From an uncultured Muribaculaceae bacterium (lineage in GTDB: Bacteria; Bacteroidota; Bacteroidia; Bacteroidales; Muribaculaceae), in assembly GCA_910584665.1 (NCBI GenBank), contig CAJUBL010000005.1, forward strand, positions 866 to 64,865: DNA of 64,000 nucleotides, given 5' to 3'. The position numbers and the translations under genes are program-made. Positions 46,406 to 54,989 of the stretch are shown in pieces (position 1 is the stretch's first letter; each line of letters starts with the position of its first letter). The notes below the pieces were generated by a model that saw only the letters and a program-made list of their open reading frames with translations, did not search any database and was not told the DNA's origin.

Positions 46406-46443
46406 AGAATCAGGAGTTCCGCTTAAGCGGAACTCCTGATTCT
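46406..46443. terminator. perfect palindromic hairpin between convergent dcp and the island operon
   Basis: agaatcaggagttccgc ttaa gcggaactcctgattct: a 17-bp perfect stem with a 4-nt loop, followed by ttc on the plus strand. Confidence 0.7.
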
Positions 46444-46685: not shown

Positions 46686-47579
46686 TTATCGGTCGGGTTC
46701 ATTGTTGTTGAGGAATTTTCGGGCTGATGTTATTATGTCTTTCCATGATGTCGTGCCAAGATCGAAGGAAATAGCGCGGTCATAATCACTTTCAAGTCCT
46801 TTGTCCGAGGCTTTACGCATCGGTACTACTTCCAATGTACGCCCATCATGTTTAATATGCACGCTCGTCGAGTGCAAGTATAGCTGTCGCCATGAACGTT
46901 GCTTCATTGCCTTGATTAGCTCCGAGGATTTCAGTTCCACATACTTTTCATGCAGACTTGCATTGAAAATATCCATCAGAGTGTCCTCAAACGTCCCATT
47001 ATCGCAGTCAAGGGGAAGGAATTTAATCGGATAACTCATGTTGACATAATATATTGTCACAAATATATACTCCTTGTCGGTGCGGTATATCAAGCACGCC
47101 CCCGACCGTTCAAGTTCCGGGCAACGGTAATTATATCGTCGGTTAATCTTCTGCCAACGAATAACCGCCAGTATAACGGCAAGAATTACAAATACGGAAA
47201 CGAATCCATACGAAGGGCCGTCGTAATACTCAAACACAGTCATATTGTTTTCCGGATTGTCTTTCTGATATACCACGCCAATACTGTCACCAATAGCAAG
47301 ACCCTTGACAGCATAGTTTCCTCGGTATCGCAAACTATCAACATTGAAATAATAATCAATACGGGGTGTGTTACCAATACTATAGACCTTTGATACTACC
47401 GTTTTTGTGAAAACAGGATTGGATGCTACGGCGTTATGTTTCCGACCATCGAAATACAGTGCGACAATAGAAATTGGCACAAGAATCAGCATCATAGTGG
47501 CGATAGGCAACCATATATCACCGCGCTGCCCAAAGAAAAACCGATATGTCTTGCTGTCTGATTTCATTTCTTTATCCAT
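46686..47579 (-). CDS. membrane protein: DUF3592-like TM/beta-sandwich/TM module fused to an unknown cytoplasmic domain
   Basis: The ATG at 47579 (MDKEMKSD) overlaps the upstream stop. TM (IWLPIATMMLILVPISIVALYF), VVSKVYSIGNTPRIDYYFNVDSLRYRGNY...GDSIGVVYQKDNPENN, and a second TM (FVSVFVILAVILAVI). About 150 aa of C-terminal domain is unrecognised. Confidence 0.6.
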   Translation of the reverse strand: MDKEMKSDSKTYRFFFGQRGDIWLPIATMMLILVPISIVALYFDGRKHNAVASNPVFTKTVVSKVYSIGNTPRIDYYFNVDSLRYRGNYAVKGLAIGDSIGVVYQKDNPENNMTVFEYYDGPSYGFVSVFVILAVILAVIRWQKINRRYNYRCPELERSGACLIYRTDKEYIFVTIYYVNMSYPIKFLPLDCDNGTFEDTLMDIFNASLHEKYVELKSSELIKAMKQRSWRQLYLHSTSVHIKHDGRTLEVVPMRKASDKGLESDYDRAISFDLGTTSWKDIITSARKFLNNNEPDR

Positions 47580-47811
47580 GTTGGTGGACACCGAAGGATT
47601 CCAGTTTCTTCTCATCAAGATTGATTAGCACATCGACTGCATCGCTTCCGCCATCTTCAATCCAGATCAGCTGGCCTTTATCTTCAGAATCATCGGAAGC
47701 GATATAATCCTCTACTATTTTTTTGCTTATGAGTATCACCATAGCATAGTTAGTATCCCCATATTTCCAACCGAAATATTGCCGACGGTATCGCTCGTAG
47801 GGATATGCCAT
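47572..47811 (-). CDS. hypothetical small acidic protein
   Basis: 79 aa, no TM, ATG start. Translationally overlapped with the next gene. No family recognised. Confidence 0.45.
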   Translation of the reverse strand: MAYPYERYRRQYFGWKYGDTNYAMVILISKKIVEDYIASDDSEDKGQLIWIEDGGSDAVDVLINLDEKKLESFGVHQHG

Positions 47812-47837
47812 ATATTCCAGCCAACCTCCTGGATTGT

Positions 47838-48674
47838 CTATAAAATAGTCGCCATCGGCAGCTGGATGGAGTCGGCGAAATGCTTTATCAATATTTCACG
47901 AGCCGTTTCATATTGCGATTGTGTGAGCTGAAAAAAATCGGGACGCTCTATTGCGTAAAACCCAAGCTCCCCATTATCATAATCGCTTATAATCACATCA
48001 TCAGCCTCCTTTGGAATCGCAATCATGTAATTCTCAATCGGCGAGCCTTCCGAAATATCGCTCCATCTGTCTTTCCTGCTATCGTAAACATAATTGCCAT
48101 ACTCATGTCCCACGCATAACGTATAAGCATTCTTATCGCAGGAATATCTAAGATGAACATTATCATTTGCGAACAGGCTATCATTATCAATGCTGACATT
48201 AATTTCGCTTAAAGTTTTCGGGTATTGTCCGTGCCGGACGTGGAAAGCCTCAATATTATCAATAACTTGATTTTCGGGATAATTCCTGACACTCACAGTC
48301 AAATATAGCAAACCTGTGCCAAGCATCAACAATGCTACATATACCAGTCCTTCAATCTTCAGGATTTTCGTTTTTTCTTTGCTCGGCAATTTCTTCAAGA
48401 AAAGAAGAGGAATCTGTGATATTATGAAGGTAATTACCGTTACAACCAATGCTCCGATGAAACGGTAACTTACATATTCTCGCCATGGATGGAGATTTAT
48501 GTTTAGTCTCTGTTCTCCCAGTCCCATCAGACTAAAGAACAGAGCAAAGAATAGCCCTGACAACAGAAGCATCAAGCATACGGTCTTGAAAATATACAGT
48601 CCCGGCCTCGGCCACTTGACCATAAAGCCGACAAGCAGGATAATAACGCATATAATTATAATAATCTGAATCAT
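47838..48674 (-). CDS. hypothetical polytopic membrane protein with soluble C-terminal domain
   Basis: 278 aa. About 5 hydrophobic segments in the first 130 aa, followed by a ~140-aa soluble region. 3-nt gap from the upstream gene. Confidence 0.55.
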   Translation of the reverse strand: MIQIIIIICVIILLVGFMVKWPRPGLYIFKTVCLMLLLSGLFFALFFSLMGLGEQRLNINLHPWREYVSYRFIGALVVTVITFIISQIPLLFLKKLPSKEKTKILKIEGLVYVALLMLGTGLLYLTVSVRNYPENQVIDNIEAFHVRHGQYPKTLSEINVSIDNDSLFANDNVHLRYSCDKNAYTLCVGHEYGNYVYDSRKDRWSDISEGSPIENYMIAIPKEADDVIISDYDNGELGFYAIERPDFFQLTQSQYETAREILIKHFADSIQLPMATIL

Positions 48675-48677
48675 ACT

Positions 48678-49319
48678 CTATTTTGAGATTTTATTGACAA
48701 TAAACCATAAAAGGAATACTAATCCTGATGATACGACAAAAGAGAGGATTGTCAAAGGAGTTACCCACGGCCAACTTTTGTAATAGAATGTCTTCAATCT
48801 TGTTAGATCCGTCACAGCAGAGGGGGTTCTTCTCTGAGCTTCACTGAGTGATTTATATTGTGTTATGCTGTCTGTCTTGGTGTCTATTACAAAGTAACTT
48901 CCGGGTGTATCGGTATCGTCGATGTCATATCTCTCTCCCGAAATAGAATCGCCTGAAACCTTGATTTTAGTAACCCATTCAAATACGAACTTTCCGTCTT
49001 TATAGAGATATCCGGTAAAACATTCACGGTCGAAACGATCTGCCGGAGATTCTATCTGATAGCCGTTAGGCAAATCGGTCTTATAGTATCCATCCATTCC
49101 GCAACCGGTGTCAAAGATTGATGCACAGGCGAAACCTCCGATTAGACAAGTGAAATAGCACGAGTATATAAACACGAATGGCGATAACAATGCCAGTATG
49201 GTATTACGTTTCCGATGTTTCCTGCTTCGCCAACATACAATACCTGCCAATGGCAGTGCAATCGCTACTGCCAGCAAAGTAATGATTATCAGTTGTATTA
49301 TAATTACGATTAATATCAT
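48678..49319 (-). CDS. hypothetical membrane protein (TM-TM-ectodomain-TM), ectodomain related to that of 51497..52069
   Basis: 213 aa. The ectodomain motifs DGYYKTDLPNGYQI, VSGDSISG and YFVIDTKTDSITQY parallel those of the lipoprotein at 51497..52069. Confidence 0.55.
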   Translation of the reverse strand: MILIVIIIQLIIITLLAVAIALPLAGIVCWRSRKHRKRNTILALLSPFVFIYSCYFTCLIGGFACASIFDTGCGMDGYYKTDLPNGYQIESPADRFDRECFTGYLYKDGKFVFEWVTKIKVSGDSISGERYDIDDTDTPGSYFVIDTKTDSITQYKSLSEAQRRTPSAVTDLTRLKTFYYKSWPWVTPLTILSFVVSSGLVFLLWFIVNKISK

Positions 49320-49402
49320 TGTTTTAGCGGTTTAATAATCAAAAGGATAACATATACCCATAATGCGACAGTCACTCCCCACGCCCCAATAGTCCATTTT
49401 CG

Positions 49403-49618
49403 TCAGACTGTCGGCGGTAGATTCATAAATTCACGATAATAACTTTTAGCTCTTTTCCCATCAACCATAAACTGCAATATGACAAGTATGGCCAGTGAAA
49501 TCCATGCCAAAGTAAAATCATTCATGAGGAATATCCATGAGAATCCAATAGCCATAAGTATGCCGCTAATAAACGCCACATCAATAAATTTCCAAATGTT
49601 TTTATCAGTCGGTTTCAT
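49403..49618 (-). CDS. small two-TM membrane protein
   Basis: 71 aa with two hydrophobic helices. Its start overlaps the upstream stop as ATGA. Confidence 0.5.
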   Translation of the reverse strand: MKPTDKNIWKFIDVAFISGILMAIGFSWIFLMNDFTLAWISLAILVILQFMVDGKRAKSYYREFMNLPPTV

Positions 49619-50484
49619 ATCACTTTTCTGTATTCTGCGTCTATTTTTGAAATTTTATTCGACGAGCCATCGACTTCAATAAATATTCCGTCAGTTATGT
49701 TTTCATCTTTTGGATTTGGCTTAAATTCAACCATAAATGAATATTTATCCAGAGGGGGTCCTGAAAATCCGTCTTGAGGTTCAATTTTAATTGTTTTATA
49801 GGCGTATTGGAAGTCGGTATCATCAGAAACGATTTTAATTGTCCCTGCGGCAAGTTTATCGGCAACTTCTTTCGTGCAGTAATAACCGAATAATCGTTTC
49901 AAGTCATCGGCAGATGCCCCGACAGCCCGTTCGTTAAGATAGAGAGCCATGAATTCAGCCACTACACAAAAGCCATCAGCACCCATGTATTCCTGTAGAA
50001 CAATGATATCGGATTTACCATCAGGCAAAATTTGGTACAGCATATTCCAGCCATCGTCAGTATCAGGGAGAAAACATCCAAATGACACATAAATAGCGGA
50101 ATCCGAAGCCCAAAAGACATAACCTCCCCATTGCATAATATATTCTCCTTCGTTACCGACTACATCCATTGTCCGTATTTCCTTGTCGGCATATACTACC
50201 TTTTTGTCATACGACAGAGTGAGATAGACTGACGAATCTCTGACAGCCCAGTCATGTCGCCTAACGGTTACATCATTGGAATCTTTTAATGCTTTGACAG
50301 TCCAATGCCCGATAACGGTATCTTCAATTACCCTGCCTCTTATTTGTTCAGACTTGTTTTCATTTACAGAATCCTCAATCGTATATTGTGACATAGTATC
50401 ATCGGTCTTACGTCTTCCGTTGCAAGCCACAATCAATATTGATACGATAAATGTAAGAAATACAACATTAATAAAATTTCTCAT
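49615..50484 (-). CDS. hypothetical lipoprotein
   Basis: 289 aa with a lipoprotein signal (SILIVAC). No family recognised. Confidence 0.6.
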   Translation of the reverse strand: MRNFINVVFLTFIVSILIVACNGRRKTDDTMSQYTIEDSVNENKSEQIRGRVIEDTVIGHWTVKALKDSNDVTVRRHDWAVRDSSVYLTLSYDKKVVYADKEIRTMDVVGNEGEYIMQWGGYVFWASDSAIYVSFGCFLPDTDDGWNMLYQILPDGKSDIIVLQEYMGADGFCVVAEFMALYLNERAVGASADDLKRLFGYYCTKEVADKLAAGTIKIVSDDTDFQYAYKTIKIEPQDGFSGPPLDKYSFMVEFKPNPKDENITDGIFIEVDGSSNKISKIDAEYRKVI

Positions 50485-50497
50485 ATTTAACTCTCTT

Positions 50498-50788
50498 TCA
50501 TTCAGATCCTACGGTTAATGCTTTGACAGTATAATTCCAACTCCATAGATATGCAGCCCATAGGAGTAATATCGTTATCGTCAGACATATCGTAAGACTA
50601 ATGCCGATATCTCTCTTACCAGCTCTTATCATATTAGTAATTTGAGCCAAAAGCAGAATCAAATTGAGAATCAGAAATGTGCGATTTACGAATGCCGAAC
50701 CTCCTGCAAACAATACGCCAAAGGTTATTACCCACACTATTACGGATAACACCACGATAATCCATTTTGCTTTATATATCAGTTCCAT
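50498..50788 (-). CDS. small three-TM membrane protein
   Basis: The ATG at 50788 (MELIYKAKWIIVVLSV...) gives 96 aa with three hydrophobic helices. Overlaps the end of the upstream gene by 17 nt. Confidence 0.45.
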   Translation of the reverse strand: MELIYKAKWIIVVLSVIVWVITFGVLFAGGSAFVNRTFLILNLILLLAQITNMIRAGKRDIGISLTICLTITILLLWAAYLWSWNYTVKALTVGSE

Positions 50789-51500
50789 TATTCTGCCTTT
50801 TATATATGAATTGATTTGGCAACACATCAGATTCGGTATTATATCTATCGAAAGATGGTTTTACATATTCCTCAAGATTATGTTCTATCTCATCCTCCCA
50901 TAGCTTCAACAGATCGGTATCAGAAGTGATACAATACCATTTATCCTCATGCACAGGCAGTAAATTTCCGATTCGTTCTCTAACAGCGCACTCATATTCT
51001 TTCGGGAAAGAGGGCACAATCCCGGCGTGTTTGGAGTCGTAATGCTCCAGCCAAAAACTATCGGTATATATGCCTATGTTCAAAGTAAATCTGATTATCT
51101 CCTTGTTATTCCATTTGTCATTCTGTATATTCACGCAATATCCAATCGCTTCATTTCTTTTGAAGAAATGATTGCCACGCCTTTTGAAATCATCATCTTT
51201 AAGGAAATCTGCGATTTTGTCAAATATGAAAGTCCCGTTGCCTTGCAGATCCATTTTGGGTAAAGATGGTTTATCAAATCGCCACAACAATGCCATACCA
51301 AGCAATATTATTGAGCCAAATATCGGAGTGTGCCATGTTATTGTTTGTTCAGTAGGATTATGGAATCGACAAGTCGCTATGCTTGTTGAACTGACATTTC
51401 CCACAAACATAATCAGTCCTATGCACAGCAATATAGCCGAGCATGTCAGGAAAATTGCAAATCCTCTCCGATGAAACCTATTGCTTGCGTCCTTTTTCAT
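50772..51500 (-). CDS. membrane-anchored protein with DUF4304-like C-terminal domain
   Basis: 242 aa. Two N-terminal TM segments, then FKRRGNHFFKRNEAIGYCVNIQNDKWNNKEIIRFTLNIGIY, which fits my recollection of DUF4304. ATGA overlap with the upstream gene. Confidence 0.55.
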   Translation of the reverse strand: MKKDASNRFHRRGFAIFLTCSAILLCIGLIMFVGNVSSTSIATCRFHNPTEQTITWHTPIFGSIILLGMALLWRFDKPSLPKMDLQGNGTFIFDKIADFLKDDDFKRRGNHFFKRNEAIGYCVNIQNDKWNNKEIIRFTLNIGIYTDSFWLEHYDSKHAGIVPSFPKEYECAVRERIGNLLPVHEDKWYCITSDTDLLKLWEDEIEHNLEEYVKPSFDRYNTESDVLPNQFIYKRQNNGTDI

Positions 51501-52069
51501 TTCGATGGATTAAACAATAGCCGGTTATTATATGCGAAATCATCATACAGGCTATCTACATGATGAAGCTGTGGCTGATCGATGCCTCGTTTGTTGAGGG
51601 CTGTCAACCATTCCTCTCTCGTTTCATGCCATTCAACAGAGTCAGTCGGCACATCAATTATAACAAAGCGCCGTATTTCCCAACCGTCATATTTATGACT
51701 TGGCATCTCCTTTAATGGAGTGAGATTTTCTGTATAATAAAGATATATTACAGAATCCTGCAATCCAACGCTCTCTACTGAACGCCGGACCGTGACGAGT
51801 GAAAATCCACCGAACTCATCTTTGTTATCGCGACGGATGCAGTCCCACACTTTCCCATCATCACCCCATAGTGTAGAACATAATTCATACGGTGCAATCA
51901 ATGGCACACGGTAATAATCCCATGCGCCCGGATCAGAATAAAAGTCGGTGCGGAAAGTGGCATTAATTTCCTCTTTAATACGCTCCTTAACAGTTTCGTA
52001 TTTAGACTTTATTCTTGAACAACCGCACATCAGTACAATAGAAATGCAAAAAAACAAAGTTATTCTCAT
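51497..52069 (-). CDS. hypothetical lipoprotein (ectodomain related to 48678..49319)
   Basis: The ATG at 52069 (MRITLFFCISIVLMCGCS) gives a lipoprotein-like signal. Motifs WDYYRVPLIAPYEL, VGLQDSVIY and RFVIIDVPTDSVEW. Confidence 0.55.
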   Translation of the reverse strand: MRITLFFCISIVLMCGCSRIKSKYETVKERIKEEINATFRTDFYSDPGAWDYYRVPLIAPYELCSTLWGDDGKVWDCIRRDNKDEFGGFSLVTVRRSVESVGLQDSVIYLYYTENLTPLKEMPSHKYDGWEIRRFVIIDVPTDSVEWHETREEWLTALNKRGIDQPQLHHVDSLYDDFAYNNRLLFNPSK

Positions 52070-52242
52070 CGCTTGCCTCCTTTCCGATTTATCAGCCAAA
52101 GTAATCCGCCCCAGAACAACACATTGCCGCCCACAAGCAGAATGTTGGCAGTTCTGCCCGGAGAATCGAAACAGAATATAGTGCTGAACAAGAATAGAAA
52201 GACTATGACAGCCGATGCTATTGCTTTACCGAGCTGTTCCAT
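52066..52242 (-). CDS. small two-TM membrane protein (58 aa, below the ORF-track cutoff)
   Basis: Hand translation: MEQLGKAIASAVIVFLFLFSTIFCFDSPGRTANILLVGGNVLFWGGLLWLINRKGGKR. The ATG lies 2 nt after the upstream stop, and its own stop overlaps the next ATG (ATGA). Confidence 0.45.
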   Translation of the reverse strand: MEQLGKAIASAVIVFLFLFSTIFCFDSPGRTANILLVGGNVLFWGGLLWLINRKGGKR

Positions 52243-52244
52243 GC

Positions 52245-53180
52245 CTATTTCTTTTTGTGTTTGAACTTGATGGTTTTCCTGGCGTTACGCTTGGGATATT
52301 TGACCTTGATTATTACCGGATCATCATAGCTCTCGGCTGTAATACGGAGGGTAGCTTCTTTCAGCGGCTTTCCTGTATCGTCATCTTTTAGACCGATGCA
52401 ATAGTCCCAAGGGATTGAACATGGGTGTTTATCACCATAATAGTCAGGGTAGATGTAATATGAATCTTCCTCTCCATTCTCGTCAATCCAGATCCGTTCA
52501 ACATCAAAACTATCCAAGTCAATACGATTCCCATTTTCATCAAAGACATTCAGATCGAGATAATGCTCCTGTTTTTTGTTTTCAACCACTACCACATCAT
52601 CAGTTAAACCCATCACGGCAGGATCAAGTGTGATTTCAACATTATTCATATCTTCCGTCACAACTATAATCTTCGATTCAAAACCGACATATTTCACTTC
52701 CAGTGTATCACCTATACAGACCGGCAAACCGAATTTTCCGTCTAAATCGGCAGTCGCGCCCAAACCTATTCGCTGATTGAAAATTGTCGCTCCTATCAAT
52801 GGTTCTTTAACGACAGTACCATCCGGTAATGTATCTGCACTCAATACAGTTCCTTTCAGCTTGATTGTATCGGTCATGGCAGGAATGGCGCCTTTCATGA
52901 AAACTTTTGATTCATCAGATAACTGTGCACCTGATGTCATCGGCGACAACAATGTAAGAGCACCGGCCGAGATTCCGGCGAGTATAACGGCTTTACCCAT
53001 GCGCTGACGGGAGCGAAGCTGCTGCTCAAGGTAGCGCACTTCGGCCTCGCATTTTGGGCATGTGCCGAGGCAGTCGCCCTTGTAACGACACTCCGAAGTT
53101 ACATACTCGATGTCATTCGCCTCAGCTATCTGCCTACGGATTTCTTTCAATATTTTGCAGGTCTGCTTTCCTCGTGCCAT
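52245..53180 (-). CDS. Cys-rich N-terminal domain / single TM / CarboxypepD_reg-like domain protein
   Basis: 311 aa. The N-terminal ~60 aa carry C31-x5-C37-x3-C41-x2-C44 (SECRYKGDCLGTCPKCE). TM (AVILAGISAGALTLL). LKGTVLS...IGATIFNQRIGLGATADLDGKFGL...VKYVGFE is a carboxypeptidase-regulatory-like fold. Lys-rich C-terminus. Confidence 0.7.
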   Translation of the reverse strand: MARGKQTCKILKEIRRQIAEANDIEYVTSECRYKGDCLGTCPKCEAEVRYLEQQLRSRQRMGKAVILAGISAGALTLLSPMTSGAQLSDESKVFMKGAIPAMTDTIKLKGTVLSADTLPDGTVVKEPLIGATIFNQRIGLGATADLDGKFGLPVCIGDTLEVKYVGFESKIIVVTEDMNNVEITLDPAVMGLTDDVVVVENKKQEHYLDLNVFDENGNRIDLDSFDVERIWIDENGEEDSYYIYPDYYGDKHPCSIPWDYCIGLKDDDTGKPLKEATLRITAESYDDPVIIKVKYPKRNARKTIKFKHKKK

Positions 53181-53182
53181 AG

Positions 53183-53806
53183 TCAGTGTTTTCGGATTTG
53201 ATAGGTGAATAAATCGAACCGGGTAAAGCCGAGAGCTTCAAGCGCAACACGGCTTGCCTCGCGGTCGGCATCAGTGTTGAACTCCGGTATCAGCGGTATG
53301 CGGATAACACAGTCATTCTGCCGCCCACTATCGGCTATCAGCCGGAGATTGGAGAGAACAAGGGAATTGTCTTGCCCGGTATAGGTGCGGTAAATCTCAG
53401 GATTCATGTCCTTGATGTCGATAATCAGTGTATTTACCACAGGGAGCAAGGATGCGATATTGTCTGCCGGGACATTGAGCGACGTTTCAAGATTTATCTG
53501 CCAGCCGTCACCGCACAGTTCGCGGAAGCATCGGATAAAACCGGGACGCAGGCACGGCTCACCGCCGCCGAATGTCACGCCGCCATTGGTGGCAAGGAAA
53601 TAAAGCTCGTCGATGCGGACTTCCCGATACAGCGATTCGGAAATATATTCCCTGAATCTGTCACCATCGCCGAGCGACTGGGGATTGAGGCAATACCGGC
53701 AACGTAGCGGGCATCCGTGAAAAGCCACAAGCGTAGTGACACCGTCGCCGTCGGTAGAAAGGCGATGACGCGCTATACCGATAATTCTTACAAGACTGTT
53801 TTCCAT
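53183..53806 (-). CDS. small radical SAM protein, glycyl-radical-enzyme-activase/NrdG-like
   Basis: The ATG at 53806 (MENSLVRIIG; the track ORF starts at a TTG at 53824) gives 207 aa. DGDGVTTLVAFHGCPLRCRYCLNP (CX3CX2C) and GGVTFGGGEP. No SPASM domain. Its stop lies 2 nt before the next ATG. Confidence 0.8.
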   Translation of the reverse strand: MENSLVRIIGIARHRLSTDGDGVTTLVAFHGCPLRCRYCLNPQSLGDGDRFREYISESLYREVRIDELYFLATNGGVTFGGGEPCLRPGFIRCFRELCGDGWQINLETSLNVPADNIASLLPVVNTLIIDIKDMNPEIYRTYTGQDNSLVLSNLRLIADSGRQNDCVIRIPLIPEFNTDADREASRVALEALGFTRFDLFTYQIRKH

Positions 53807-53874
53807 ACCGTGCCGATTTTCCAAGCCGTCATTCTACTTCATTATCCCATAGAGCCAAAGAATGGTTCACACTG

Positions 53875-53882
53875 CAAATTTA
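53875..53882 (-). promoter_or_regulatory. candidate Bacteroides-type -7 promoter box (TAAATTTG) for the island operon
   Basis: The reverse complement of caaattta matches TAnnTTTG, ~70 nt upstream of the ATG at 53806. No clear -33 TTTG was seen. Confidence 0.3.
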
Positions 53883-54038
53883 ACGAGAATAAATGACTTC
53901 AGATATGACATTTGTCACATTCTTACGGGATATGATGATTATAATTTAAAATATATACTGAGCCTTTTACACAGACTGTAATGTTAATAAATATTTATTG
54001 CTCTTTTGCTAAAATATAGTTGTCTGTATGCGGATAGG

Positions 54039-54428
54039 TTAAATGCAATCTGAATCTGTGCGGTTTTCACGATTGTATCGTTCTTCGTATTCAGTAATAA
54101 TTCGCTCAATATCCTTTTTAAGCTCCGGAATATGGCACATTACCAAATTCCACAGAAATGTCGGTTACACATTGTCGTAAGCGTGGATGATTCGGTTCCG
54201 TGTGTCAATTATGGCTCTCGCATTTGGAATTTCTACAGATGGGTCAGCTTTTTTTATTCGATTTATTGCCTCACCCATAATCTCTGTTTTGCGTTCAACT
54301 ACGCATTTACGCATAATGTCTTTCTCAAACAAATCATATCGGTTGGGAAAGTCAACAAAGCAACTCTGCATATCGTTGATTGCGTCCAACACATCCTGGA
54401 GATATGTAAGGATTCCCTCAGTAGCCAT
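54039..54428 (-). pseudogene. hepT: HepT (DUF86) RNase toxin interrupted by an in-frame TAA at 54165-54167
   Basis: The 87-aa ORF ends ...TRNRIIHAYDNV* (RX4HXY motif present). The same frame continues for 41 codons (PTFLWNLVMCHIPELKKDIERIITEYEE...) to a TAA at 54039-54041, restoring a ~129-aa DUF86-length protein. Confidence 0.8.
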
Positions 54429-54726
54429 AAATCATCTGTTTTGTACGGTTGACATTGGCAATGAAGTATTTGTTCCGAAGTCCTCCTTCTTCAATCAAAT
54501 CAACCTTTCTACCGAAAAGGCTCTCCAATGCGTCACGAAAATCGAAGTAATTTGTAACATAATCCCACTTCTCATGGTCTGCGGTATCGAAGTCCACAAG
54601 TAAGTCCACATCGCTTTGGTCGTTGAATCTATCTGTAAGGATAGAGCCAAAGACAGCCAGAGTCTTGACCTTGTGCTTTCGGCAAAGGTCAATGATTCGT
54701 TGTAGATTCAGTTCAATCAACTTCAT
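54418..54726 (-). CDS. mntA: MntA-type nucleotidyltransferase antitoxin
   Basis: 102 aa. LAVFGSILTDRFNDQSDVDLLVDF (GS...DxD minimal nucleotidyltransferase motif). Overlaps the hepT start by 11 nt. Confidence 0.85.
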   Translation of the reverse strand: MKLIELNLQRIIDLCRKHKVKTLAVFGSILTDRFNDQSDVDLLVDFDTADHEKWDYVTNYFDFRDALESLFGRKVDLIEEGGLRNKYFIANVNRTKQMIYGY

Positions 54727-54937: not shown

Positions 54938-54989
54938 GAAAATCGTGGAGGGTGCACCGTAAAGCCAACGATACACCCTCCACGATTTC
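54938..54989 (-). terminator. hairpin downstream of rsmD at the right island edge
   Basis: gaaaatcgtggagggtg (54938-54954) pairs with caccctccacgatttc (54974-54989): a 16-bp stem with a 19-nt loop, starting 22 nt after the rsmD stop on the minus strand. Confidence 0.5.

Follow-up and report, generated by a model that had tools for sequence, protein, structure and literature searches.

The locus described here raises the question of what a small radical-SAM (rSAM) enzyme resembling the activases of glycyl-radical enzymes (GREs) acts on when its neighbour is a predicted exported protein and not a GRE. The rSAM gene lies on the minus strand (53183..53806) of the stretch analysed, 64,000 nt of DNA from an uncultured Muribaculaceae bacterium (hereafter the window), and encodes 207 aa from its ATG, the length of nearly all of its homologues; an alternative start, a TTG at 53824, would give a protein of 213 aa (53183-53824). 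Only 2 nt separate its stop codon (53185-53183) from the ATG at 53180 of a partner gene on the same strand (52245-53180), which encodes 311 aa. These ORF coordinates confirm the arrangement given in an earlier note on this DNA, a 207-aa rSAM protein followed 2 nt downstream by a gene for a 311-aa protein.

The enzyme carries the motifs D19-G-D-G22, G31-C32-PLR-C36-RY-C39-LNP and G75-G-V-T-F-G-G-G-E-P84 (207-aa numbering), the first and last of which are the DGxG and GGVTFGGGEP motifs that had already been recognised. In an alignment of 71 orthologues, 77 positions are at least 97% conserved, and C32-x3-C36-x2-C39 and G80-G-G-E-P84 reach the same level. Pfam returned Radical_SAM (6e-17) and Fer4_12 with no SPASM match, as the earlier note had stated, and the protein is a minimal core that ends with the barrel, lacking both the ferredoxin insert and SPASM. 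Its best PDB sequence match was E. coli PFL-AE (3c8f, 8.6e-17), with 8fo0 also found at ~1e-16; D19-G20-D21-G22-V23-T24 aligns with the DGPGIR of PFL-AE, D19, G20 and G22 being conserved and Thr replacing Arg. In activases this N-terminal glycine-rich loop, DGxGxR, touches the Gly loop of the substrate. The top NCBIfam matches were GRE activases, the PflA/PflC/NrdG group of TIGR02493, TIGR02494 and TIGR02495, each below its curated cut-off (TIGR02494, 132 versus 174 bits and split into two stretches; PFLA, 90 versus 232; NrdG2, 48 versus 131), and the remaining activase equivalogs scored far lower than their cut-offs, as was also the case for the orthologue at locus L088 (55% identical to the window enzyme). 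SPASM-family NCBIfam matches were marginal and limited to the N-terminal core region (ScmF, E 1e-4). By its sequence, the enzyme belongs to the protein-substrate (GRE-activase) clade and not to the SPASM clade. It shares with PFL-AE (PflA) and NrdG a CX3CX2C motif near the N-terminus, a preceding DGxG loop, a GGE motif, small size and the lack of SPASM, and family membership suggests that, as in these enzymes, the 5'-deoxyadenosyl radical would abstract hydrogen from some residue in a substrate protein. It differs from them in scoring below every curated cut-off and in having no GRE partner nearby.

The earlier note had treated the rSAM and the membrane protein as a unit and mentioned similar pairs in other Bacteroidales. 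Such pairs were indeed found in Muribaculaceae, Prevotella, Palleniella, Bacteroides and an Odoribacter-labelled MAG, and the unit was retained in a narrower form, in that the part conserved beside the rSAM is the Cys-rich N-terminal head of the partner rather than the whole membrane protein. Some relatives are annotated only as hypothetical, as the earlier note had it, while others are named 'radical SAM protein', 'carboxypeptidase-like regulatory domain-containing protein' or 'energy transducer TonB'. A neighbourhood census placed the co-occurrence far above chance. Starting from the head, an adjoining rSAM gene was present at 65/67 informative genome loci, lying directly upstream on the same strand at 62 and adjacent in another order at three more; starting from the rSAM, a head gene adjoined at 70/79 informative metagenome loci. 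The two genes abut in 49 of the 62: either 2 nt separate them, or they overlap by 4 nt, or they seem to overlap by as much as 113 nt because starts were called on the longest ORF. At nine rSAM loci, those of the L105 and L160 clades and L133, no head gene was found in the surrounding 4 kb, and the rSAM can therefore exist without an adjacent head. Each rSAM is accompanied by one to five tandem head genes, and several genomes have a second module that brings its own rSAM (L022/L024, L017/L054). The smallest version, a 203-aa rSAM with a 122-aa head protein (head, signal peptide and a 45-aa tail), sits among housekeeping genes between gmk and fba with no downstream gene array, and the existence of this minimal pair places the function in the head region. 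The rSAM and the head are the only families that recur near the pair, with no conserved third component. These data show that the rSAM and the head form a conserved, translationally coupled two-component module of gut Bacteroidales.

With this module in hand, we considered whether the rSAM could be an ordinary activase for PflB, NrdD or another GRE encoded elsewhere, its position being incidental. GRE activases are its best family matches, homologues are named 'pyruvate formate lyase activating enzyme' by JGI, and the nine loci without an adjacent head would suit such a role. Against it, the scores of the enzyme fall well short of the equivalog cut-offs for PflA and NrdG, and adjacency and coupling to the head are kept across chromosomal contexts and in duplicated modules. 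The earlier note had seen neither a GRE nor nrdD in the window, and in agreement no GRE-like ORF (a long ORF with C-terminal R[VIC]xG[YFW]) was found in the 64 kb, nor within 4-10 kb at ~160 related loci, where no relative has the rSAM beside nrdD or another GRE. The low scores, the lack of a nearby GRE and the conserved adjacency to the head show that the rSAM is not a displaced pyruvate-formate-lyase or RNR activase, and we rejected incidental placement as extremely improbable.

The view that the pair belongs to an island was not upheld, since its chromosomal context differs between relatives and the array downstream is optional. An origin in a phage or defence island was likewise rejected: a set of 2.9 million viral contigs contained no head, and PADLOC returned nothing beyond a marginal pVip match to the rSAM (E 0.0019, 15.7 bits). 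Mobile-element boundaries were also rejected, with flanking direct repeats and structured RNA both absent.

Conservation and an AlphaFold2 (AF2) model delimit the head as residues 1-62 of the partner (52995..53180, minus strand), laid out as a helix at residues 3-21, a Cys loop at 22-41 and a second helix from residue 42. The motif C31-x5-C37-x3-C41-x2-C44 reported previously is present, although that list missed C8; C8, C31, C37, C41, C44, P42 and G39 are invariant among relatives, and G35 and G62 vary little or not at all. The AF2 model (pLDDT 81.7) places the Cys residues on helix 1, in the loop and at the N-terminus of helix 2. Across loci the head is 86% identical in protein (by our count about 78% between the window and L088, where the rSAM is 55% identical), whereas third-codon positions are only 52% identical, indicating strong purifying selection. 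The head-coding DNA evolves in concert, with 89% identity within a locus versus 78% between loci. At 50% identity, the gut Bacteroidales proteins that carry the head fall into 2,725 clusters. In the best 150 of these clusters it is N-terminal in nearly all and 71-94% identical, with unrelated tails behind it; the main fusion partners among these 150 representatives are TonB_C (70) and SusC-NTE-like domains (31), and fusions to OmpA or to almost no tail were also seen. Its carriers are predicted to be exported and span 100-470 aa.

Although conserved at a level near that of ribosomal proteins, the head found no family match in Pfam, NCBIfam or PDB sequences, its AF2 model matched no PDB fold, and full-text literature searching returned nothing relevant on the head peptide or on a pairing of rSAM, TonB and Bacteroides. 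When three heads were run against Pfam at E ≤ 10, only Zn_Ribbon_YjdM (E 0.003-0.04) and Ribonuclease_T2 came back, and a further protein search with a head profile found only short proteins, often fragments. The rSAM/head pair is apparently undescribed so far. The labels 'energy transducer TonB' and 'carboxypeptidase-like regulatory domain protein' hide the head common to its carriers, and recognising it would correct counts of 'TonB paralogues' in Bacteroidales genomes. The five invariant Cys residues are probably ligands of a metal centre, which could be Zn or an Fe-S cluster; C41-P42 and the CX3CX2C spacing fit both.

A cytoplasmic Cys domain of this kind could also be a small zinc-binding regulatory domain, like that of an anti-sigma factor or of a substrate of regulated intramembrane proteolysis, relaying a periplasmic TonB-box or NTE signal inward while the co-transcribed rSAM acts on something unrelated. 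As in the ZAS/zf-HC2 anti-sigma factors, a helical Cys N-domain precedes a hydrophobic segment and a variable, sensor-like extracytoplasmic domain, with x3-C-x2-C spacing at a helix start; C37-x3-C41-x2-C44 together with the Cys on helix 1 recalls the ZAS motif H-x3-C-x2-C, and a Crp-like regulator often neighbours the pair. However, at about 60 residues the head is shorter than an anti-sigma domain, it has five Cys residues and is followed by signal-peptidase sites, and it gave no zf-HC2 match in the three-head Pfam scan even at E ≤ 10 and no PDB fold match for its model. A known zinc anti-sigma family beside a sigma factor was not found in relatives either: among 140 genes immediately upstream (positions -1/-2, 70+ loci), none of the 25 families with at least two members is a sigma factor, sigma-70 included. 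The zinc-regulator explanation, which would leave the 97% and 89% adjacency and the 2-nt coupling to the rSAM unexplained, is in our view very unlikely.

Behind the head, residues 63-86 of the partner form a hydrophobic segment, GKAVILAGISAGALTLLSPMTSGA (52923..52994, minus strand), that ends in S-G-A|Q at residues 84-87. The earlier note had read it as one transmembrane segment; given the signal-peptidase motifs that follow the head, a cleavable signal-peptide core is more likely than a permanent anchor. The segment reads as the h/c-region of a signal peptide with a putative signal peptidase I site obeying the Q-rule described for Bacteroidetes (PMC5837995). AF2 gives no confident helix for it. 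Among 257 head proteins, a lipobox occurs in 128 and small-x-small|Q in 89, and the motif follows the class of tail (lipobox in 133/167 TonB_C tails, small-x-small|Q in 85/103 NTE-like tails). Head proteins fit Sec criteria in having a basic n-region, a hydrophobic core of 15-22 residues and then small-x-small|Q or a lipobox Cys, but the structured n-region of 62 residues is atypical for a Sec signal peptide.

The tail of the window partner begins with a CarboxypepD_reg/SusC-NTE-like beta-sandwich at residues ~106-197 (52590..52865, minus strand; Pfam PF13715, CarbopepD_reg_2, residues 121-197, 3.3e-10), confirming the CarboxypepD_reg-like domain proposed earlier. Foldseek matched it to SusC NTE domains 9hfj (target TM-score 0.83, 27% identity) and 6ytc. 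It is followed by a second all-beta domain of seven strands at residues 207-305 (52266..52562, minus strand; AF2 pLDDT 83-91), for which Pfam gave no match. Unlike SusC/RagA transporters, the 311-aa partner lacks a plug and a 22-strand barrel: no TonB_C, plug or barrel was found with Pfam or NCBIfam, and TIGR04056 covers only positions 12-89 of its 981 (56 versus 368 bits). A head paralogue at L001 matches TIGR01352 and keeps the YP motif, and TonB_C head proteins carry the NCBI name 'energy transducer TonB'. The cargo of the head has the TonB_C and NTE-like folds of the TonB paralogues and SusC NTE domains of Bacteroides; TonB transducers differ, however, in that head proteins have the head and a lipobox signal peptide in place of the N-terminal TonB-type transmembrane helix, and in that their hydrophobic segment is rich in Gly, Ala and Ser and lacks the conserved His of the helix that couples to ExbB/ExbD. 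No such head was described in a survey of 11 B. thetaiotaomicron TonB homologues, in which BT1056 is TonB2, of 269 aa and near a regulator (PMC10350073). It is possible that BT1056 is a B. thetaiotaomicron member of the head family.

Based on these observations, we propose for the rSAM the role of a dedicated protein-radical enzyme acting on, or docking to, the metal-binding head, a reading we hold at slightly below even odds (about 0.45). The head would be a cytoplasmic helix-loop-helix of ~62 residues ahead of an ordinary Sec signal peptide. The signal-peptidase motifs behind it imply that the periplasmic cargo is probably cut free, by signal peptidase II at the lipobox for TonB_C cargo and by signal peptidase I at small-x-small|Q for SusC-NTE-like cargo, and cleavage would leave the head and the hydrophobic core at the inner face of the membrane. 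The rSAM would take as its substrate the head encoded directly downstream, as synteny, translational coupling and conservation suggest, and because the same head is common to all 1-5 head proteins of an operon, one rSAM could serve them all. The likeliest target would be an invariant glycine of the loop or boundary (G35, G39 or G62) or a neighbouring Cys. A possible role would be the licensing or timing of export, in which periplasmic TonB-box-binding and NTE-like proteins would be accompanied by a variable set of small envelope proteins. Counted against this reading are that a domain of 62 residues is too small to bury a stable glycyl radical as a GRE barrel does, that the activase models score below cut-off, that 9/79 loci are headless and that the head, with no detectable homology to GRE glycyl-radical domains, lacks their canonical RVxG[YFW] motif.

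AmmeMemoRadiSam is an orphan GRE-activase-like rSAM system that likewise has no GRE. There too, a PflA-like rSAM stands in conserved synteny with non-GRE proteins, although its partners are Memo and AMMECR1 and not a Cys-rich domain ahead of a signal peptide; the NCBIfam model for it was not among the matches to our rSAM at E ≤ 0.01.

Synteny cannot separate a substrate from an accessory subunit. The head could instead be an accessory metal-cluster subunit or membrane tether of the rSAM, supplying in trans the electron-transfer or substrate-ligating Fe-S cluster that ferredoxin inserts and SPASM/twitch domains provide; the real substrate would then be elsewhere at the membrane (a lipid, a small molecule or another protein), and the hydrophobic segment would remain an anchor through which the periplasmic domain could couple envelope events to radical chemistry. 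The rSAM does lack the ferredoxin insert of most non-PflA GRE activases, the head has CX3CX2C and an invariant Cys-Pro, each of which is often seen in Fe-S ligation, the SPASM signature likewise includes Cx5Cx3C spacing, and tight translational coupling suits the co-assembly of subunits. On the other hand, up to five head proteins per rSAM would be an odd stoichiometry for an obligate subunit, the class-specific signal-peptidase motifs point to cleavage and not to permanent anchoring, and the neighbourhood offers no conserved third component as a candidate. We regard an accessory role as unlikely.

The arrangement of one rSAM followed by one or several tandem genes sharing a conserved Cys-rich N-terminus, with the peptide part unusually conserved, resembles that of rSAM/SPASM maturases of RiPPs (sactipeptides, ranthipeptides/SCIFF), and the head might accordingly be a leader or recognition element bound by the rSAM, which would modify or cut the junction or variable region, for example at G62, and so decide whether or when the cargo is exported. 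Such a leader would account for a conserved N-terminus with hypervariable tails across the 2,725 clusters, for several tandem 'precursors' behind one enzyme and for the concerted evolution of the head DNA. A loose parallel can also be drawn with the NrdG substrate module, in which the target Gly lies ~16 residues beyond a Cys4 knuckle region (checked on PDB sequences): the radical Gly of NrdD is 16 residues past CPxC, and G62-K-A-V is 18 residues past the CPKC knuckle of the head. Homology of the head to the Zn-ribbon/glycyl-radical domain of NrdD was nevertheless rejected (hhalign, probability 33% over 18 columns; HMMER, nothing), and the parallel is kept as an analogy. An RRE domain, SPASM or both are present in the known rSAM maturases of RiPPs. 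The rSAM here is of the activase clade and has neither an RRE nor SPASM/twitch, and its 'precursor' is the N-terminus of predicted exported proteins of 100-470 aa, ahead of a signal peptide, whose tails are folded domains of differing families or nearly absent and whose common core is the signal peptide only. We consider a RiPP-like or secretion-licensing role of this kind quite unlikely.

A stronger form of the preferred reading, in which the rSAM acts on the head itself, would have the enzyme make a radical, a cross-link or a backbone scission there, with an invariant glycine such as G62, at the boundary of head and signal peptide, as a candidate site, such that export or release of the cargo depends on anaerobic radical chemistry. 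This extension is doubtful. An export switch of this type would be sensitive to oxygen or redox state, because oxygen destroys glycyl radicals, and we know of no secretion signal or rSAM system that works as a radical-controlled domain ahead of a signal peptide. If the rSAM does act on the head, the head would be a new class of protein substrate for the glycyl-radical-activase clade and the first case in which radical chemistry takes place on a signal peptide's cytoplasmic extension. A link would then also emerge, in the dominant gut phylum, between rSAM enzymology on the one side and TonB-dependent transport and envelope biogenesis on the other. The pair, a 207-aa enzyme with a peptide of 60-90 residues, makes a clean small test system.

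Upstream of the rSAM, TAAATTTG (53875..53882, minus strand) is the predicted operon promoter and fits TAnnTTTG, the Bacteroides -7 promoter consensus. A palindrome read from the sequence, TGTGACAAATGTCATA (53904..53919, minus strand), is a candidate Crp/Fnr-type operator; it begins 113 nt upstream of the rSAM ATG and is centred ~42 nt before the inferred start of transcription. A palindrome nearly identical to it, TG[TG]GACAWWWTGTCACA, occurs within 250 bp upstream of the rSAM at 27/130 loci versus 1.1 expected (at most one mismatch to TGTGA-N6-TCACA, with the expectation taken from shuffles), and the commonest immediate upstream neighbour of the rSAM is a cNMP_binding (Crp-like) regulator. 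A Crp/Fnr-type regulator acting through the palindrome upstream probably turns the operon on.

Downstream, a small protein of 58 aa, two-transmembrane-like by sequence, starts 2 nt after the stop codon of the partner (52066..52242, minus strand); it is called as a gene in MAGs of the same species, and similar small membrane proteins recur in the arrays at other loci. Eight ORFs follow as a same-strand array (46686..52099, minus strand); several of the eight have N-terminal hydrophobic or lipobox-like sequences, and one has a DUF4304 match and the others are without a family. Arrays in relatives hold up to 18 same-strand small genes, vary between loci and include Imm32 and DKNYY. The array is optional, variable cargo outside the conserved core. 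Imm32, DUF4304 and DKNYY are families known from polymorphic-toxin loci, and a few array genes match one of them, while most have no Pfam match. In polyimmunity loci (Zhang et al. 2012, PMC3482391), genes of diverse immunity families stand in tandem on one strand and differ between strains; as an account of the whole operon, such a locus was rejected, since most array proteins are without a family and the minimal pair has no array. The GC content of the array is 39-41% versus about 50% in the flanks, and between its end and a convergent M3 peptidase gene lies a perfect 19-bp palindrome (46406..46443), which is likely a bidirectional terminator.

Both genes of the pair singled out in the earlier note are real, lie on the minus strand and are arranged as described there, with a 2-nt spacer between the stop codon of the radical-SAM gene (rSAM, 53185-53183) and the start of its partner (52245-53180) at 53180. 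Read as an ORF from its ATG, rSAM spans 53183-53806 on the minus strand and encodes 207 aa, which is the product length in almost all rSAM homologues; an alternative TTG start at 53824 would give 213 aa (53183-53824). The motifs first quoted for it (STDGDGV..., GCPLRCRYCLNP and GGVTFGGGEP) are all found in the ORF, and Pfam assigns it Radical_SAM and Fer4_12 and no other family, bearing out the absence of a SPASM domain. Activases of glycyl-radical enzymes (GREs) take the top NCBIfam ranks, each under its curated cut-off (bits/cut-off: TIGR02494 132/174, PFLA 90/232, NrdG2 48/131), and the closest solved structure by sequence is E. coli PFL-AE (3c8f, 8.6e-17). rSAM is a new, uncurated subfamily within a known clade. 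With such a profile, it could simply be a displaced activase, whose relatives would adjoin a GRE. The C-terminal RVxG[FWY] glycyl-radical signature occurs in no ORF of the window, as the earlier reading had it, and this explanation was rejected because no GRE is found near rSAM in ~160 loci.

The partner indeed has 311 aa and carries C31-x5-C37-x3-C41-x2-C44, to which a fifth cysteine, C8, is to be added, and the CarboxypepD_reg-like domain proposed for it is CarbopepD_reg_2 in Pfam (residues 121-197). With residues 1-66 as query, a full HMMER run over 1.84 billion representative proteins recognised the Cys-rich N-terminal region of the partner (residues 1-62, hereafter the head) in 2,725 clusters at E<=1e-3, of which 1,839 reach E<=1e-10. 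Among the 150 best matches, whose total length is 87-473 aa, head identity is 71-94% and the remainder of each protein is unrelated; the alignment begins at protein residue 1-3 in all but six, and C8, L11, I14, I18, A19, N22, I24, C31, C37, G39, C41, P42, C44, E47 and L51 are invariant. The following cargo is TonB_C in 70 of these 150 proteins, CarbopepD_reg_2 in 31 and OmpA in 1, and the head itself is covered by no Pfam family in any of them. A permissive Pfam scan of the head (E<=10) gave a marginal zinc-knuckle match only, a profile search of PDB sequences gave no match, and NCBIfam holds no model for it. The head is modelled confidently by AlphaFold2 from a 115-sequence alignment (pLDDT 81.7), with a helix at 3-21, a loop at 22-41 and a second helix from 42, the cysteines being placed in helix 1, the loop and the N-terminus of helix 2; Foldseek found no fold like it in the PDB (lowest E-value 2.5). 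The head is classed as a domain without detectable relatives. Alternatively, it might act as a regulatory domain. The possibility of a zinc-ribbon anti-sigma factor, raised at the outset, found no support: zf-HC2 was not matched, and sigma factors did not recur (at least two hits) in the 140 genes immediately upstream.

The activase-clade rSAM and the head form a conserved, translationally coupled module. The head profile was run against one genome per GTDB species and matched in at least 588 places, from which 78 loci were kept; 67 of the 78 were informative, having a complete head ORF and either at least 1 kb upstream or an rSAM found, with rSAM orthologues called at 284 bits or more. rSAM lies directly upstream on the same strand in 62 of the 67, adjoins the head gene in a different order in three and is absent from two, one of which retains an rSAM remnant. 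In 49 of the 62, rSAM abuts the head gene, with a 2-nt gap, a 4-nt overlap or an apparent overlap of up to 113 nt that stems from longest-ORF start calls; the remaining 13 lie 0.76-1.8 kb away. In the reverse direction, metagenome contigs were searched with an rSAM profile whose first sequence is the orthologue that diverges most (55% identity with the window rSAM), and yielded 80 loci, 79 of them informative. An adjoining head gene is present in 70 of the 79 and none lies within 4 kb in nine, with one to five head genes per rSAM. The suspected pairing therefore held up from both sides (65/67 head-first, 70/79 rSAM-first), and all-against-all clustering of neighbourhood genes showed consistent conservation for the rSAM and head families only. 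In several genomes there are two complete modules, and each has an rSAM copy to itself, so the module duplicates as a unit. Such modules lie on different contigs in RIAY01 (L022/L024), JAETNO01 (L017/L054) and CAJTZS01 (L018/L059), with rSAM copies that score, for example, 429 and 378 bits to the window enzyme.

In one human-gut lineage, seven loci hold rSAM in the same context throughout. The head gene is directly upstream of rSAM in L149 and L153, and a 129-aa membrane protein replaces it in L160, L158, L155, L165 and L166, whose rSAM has no adjoining head because this protein occupies its place. Two other modules look decayed: in L085 (9865-9996), an rSAM remnant of only 53 bits precedes an intact head gene, and in L087 (7821-9425), from a Bacteroides cellulosilyticus MAG, separate ORFs encode the head (96 aa) and the CarbopepD_reg portion (229 aa), and only a 57-aa ORF lies before them.

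Directly after the head, ~20 uncharged residues are followed by a lipobox Cys in 128 of 257 head proteins and by small-x-small|Q in 89, Gln at +1 marking signal peptidase I substrates in Bacteroidetes (PMC5837995). The motif tracks cargo class, with a lipobox in 133 of 167 TonB_C tails and a Q-type site in 85 of 103 CarbopepD_reg tails; the window partner reads ...LLSPMTSGA|QLSDE. Of the single TM segment originally assigned to the partner, the hydrophobic stretch stands and a permanent membrane span appears less likely, as signal-peptidase motifs follow and AlphaFold2 gives no confident helix there. Because of these class-tracking sites and the lack of a confident helix, the head would extend a cleavable signal peptide into the cytoplasm as a long, structured segment, and the periplasmic domains would probably be released or lipid-anchored. 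A RiPP-like or secretion-licensing role of the head is a rival reading. The periplasmic part of the window protein comprises a SusC-NTE-like beta-sandwich (Foldseek 9hfj, target TM-score 0.83; also 6ytc) and, C-terminal to it, a second beta domain without a family match. A short conserved L-Q-G-E-P motif recurs 10-25 residues past the lipobox Cys in TonB_C-class proteins (for example the head-TonB_C proteins P0241, P0311, P0441 and P0467) and in minimal head proteins.

The smallest version of the module lies between gmk and fba, where a 203-aa rSAM gene overlaps a 122-aa head gene with no array of small genes; the 122-aa protein consists only of head, hydrophobic segment, lipobox and a 45-residue acidic tail. 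Between this locus and the window, identity is ~78% for the head and 55% for rSAM, and constraint is stronger on the head than on the enzyme. Across loci, the head shows 86% protein identity versus 52% at third-codon positions; copies that share a locus resemble each other more closely (89% DNA identity), a sign of concerted evolution.

We propose that, like PFL-AE and NrdG with the proteins they act on, rSAM abstracts a hydrogen atom from a head residue, and that the five head cysteines may hold Zn or an Fe-S cluster; with such a cluster, the head could instead be an accessory Fe-S subunit. Candidate targets would be two invariant glycines of the Cys loop, G35 and G39, or G62, where head and signal peptide meet. 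In the C-terminal domain of NrdD, the substrate of NrdG, the radical glycine follows a Cys4 knuckle region (CxxC...CPxCG) by 16 residues, a spacing verified on PDB sequences 9d3x, 1h78 and 8p23, whereas in the head G62-K-A-V follows C41-P-K-C44 by 18. Profile-profile comparison did not indicate homology between the two domains (probability 33%, 18 columns), so the parallel is only a lead. Conservatively, the module would be a protein-modifying enzyme of the radical-SAM type plus a partner protein dedicated to it; there is a substantial, though less than even, chance that it represents a categorically new secretion-linked radical system. Full-text literature searches, head peptide strings included, returned no description, and a survey of 11 B. 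thetaiotaomicron TonB homologues mentions no such head (PMC10350073). We found no described counterpart of a pair that ties radical-SAM chemistry to an N-terminal signal-peptide extension on TonB_C and NTE-like proteins. The two genes are a genuine pair, common in a major gut phylum and without annotation, and a small recombinant system would allow a direct test.

Close homologues are found in Muribaculaceae, Duncaniella and Muribaculum among them, and same-species MAGs have a gene arrangement identical to the window: an RsmD-like methyltransferase, a HepT/MntA pair, rSAM, the partner, a 58-aa small membrane protein, same-strand small genes (one DUF4304) and a convergent M3 peptidase. The HepT/MntA genes, a type VII toxin-antitoxin pair (54165-54726, minus strand; HepT-like RNase, 87 aa; MntA-like nucleotidyltransferase antitoxin, 102 aa), share an overlap and form an insertion that separates the RsmD-like gene from the rSAM promoter; present in same-species MAGs, they are absent from the modules of other lineages. 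In a different Duncaniella lineage, a 91% identical rSAM at another location adjoins a divergent Crp-like regulator and a ParB-like gene and is followed 3' by two head genes (one TonB_C, one CarbopepD_reg_2), whose products differ at one position only in their first ~60 residues, and then by ~20 small genes including Imm32.

The two-TM-like 58-aa ORF (52066-52242, minus strand) starts 2 nt past the partner stop and has a basic C-terminus (…NRKGGKR); arrays at 11 other loci contain 16 similar small membrane proteins, which end in …WGKGGRR. The window array (46686-52099, minus strand) consists of same-strand ORFs, several of which begin with a hydrophobic or lipobox-like stretch, at 39-41% GC versus ~50% in the flanks, and DUF4304 is its only recognisable member. 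Arrays of other lineages include Imm32 and DKNYY, their content varying from locus to locus. By analogy, the array resembles polyimmunity loci, yet most members are without a family. A known defence system was rejected, as PADLOC gives only a marginal pVip match to rSAM (E 0.0019, 15.7 bits), and so was a phage origin, the head being absent from 2.9 million viral contigs; the locus shows no flanking repeats and no structured RNAs and is not visibly mobile. A perfect 19-bp palindrome without a loop (46406-46443), between the array end and the convergent M3 peptidase gene, is likely a bidirectional terminator, and a second hairpin lies downstream of the RsmD-like gene (54940-54988).

Upstream of rSAM, TAAATTTG (53875-53882) fits a Bacteroides -7 box, and the palindrome TGTGACAAATGTCATA (53904-53919, minus strand) has its centre ~42 nt before the inferred transcription start. 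This palindrome, of Crp/Fnr type and conserved as TG[TG]GACAWWWTGTCACA, occurs within 250 bp upstream of rSAM in 27 of 130 loci versus 1.1 expected by chance (at most one mismatch to TGTGA-N6-TCACA; loci L009-L169), at positions that cluster at -48, -67/-70 and -112/-115 from the rSAM start codon. The commonest immediate upstream neighbour of the module (140 genes) is a cNMP_binding regulator. This sequence pattern would fit control by a neighbouring Crp/Fnr-like regulator, which adjoins the module in several genomes.

Bacteroidales-type rSAM/head modules also occur in MAGs titled 'Paenibacillus sp.' (L011, JAMPHR010000003.1) and 'uncultured Staphylococcus sp.' (L075, CAZKNK010000002.1), public records that are likely mis-binned or mislabelled.
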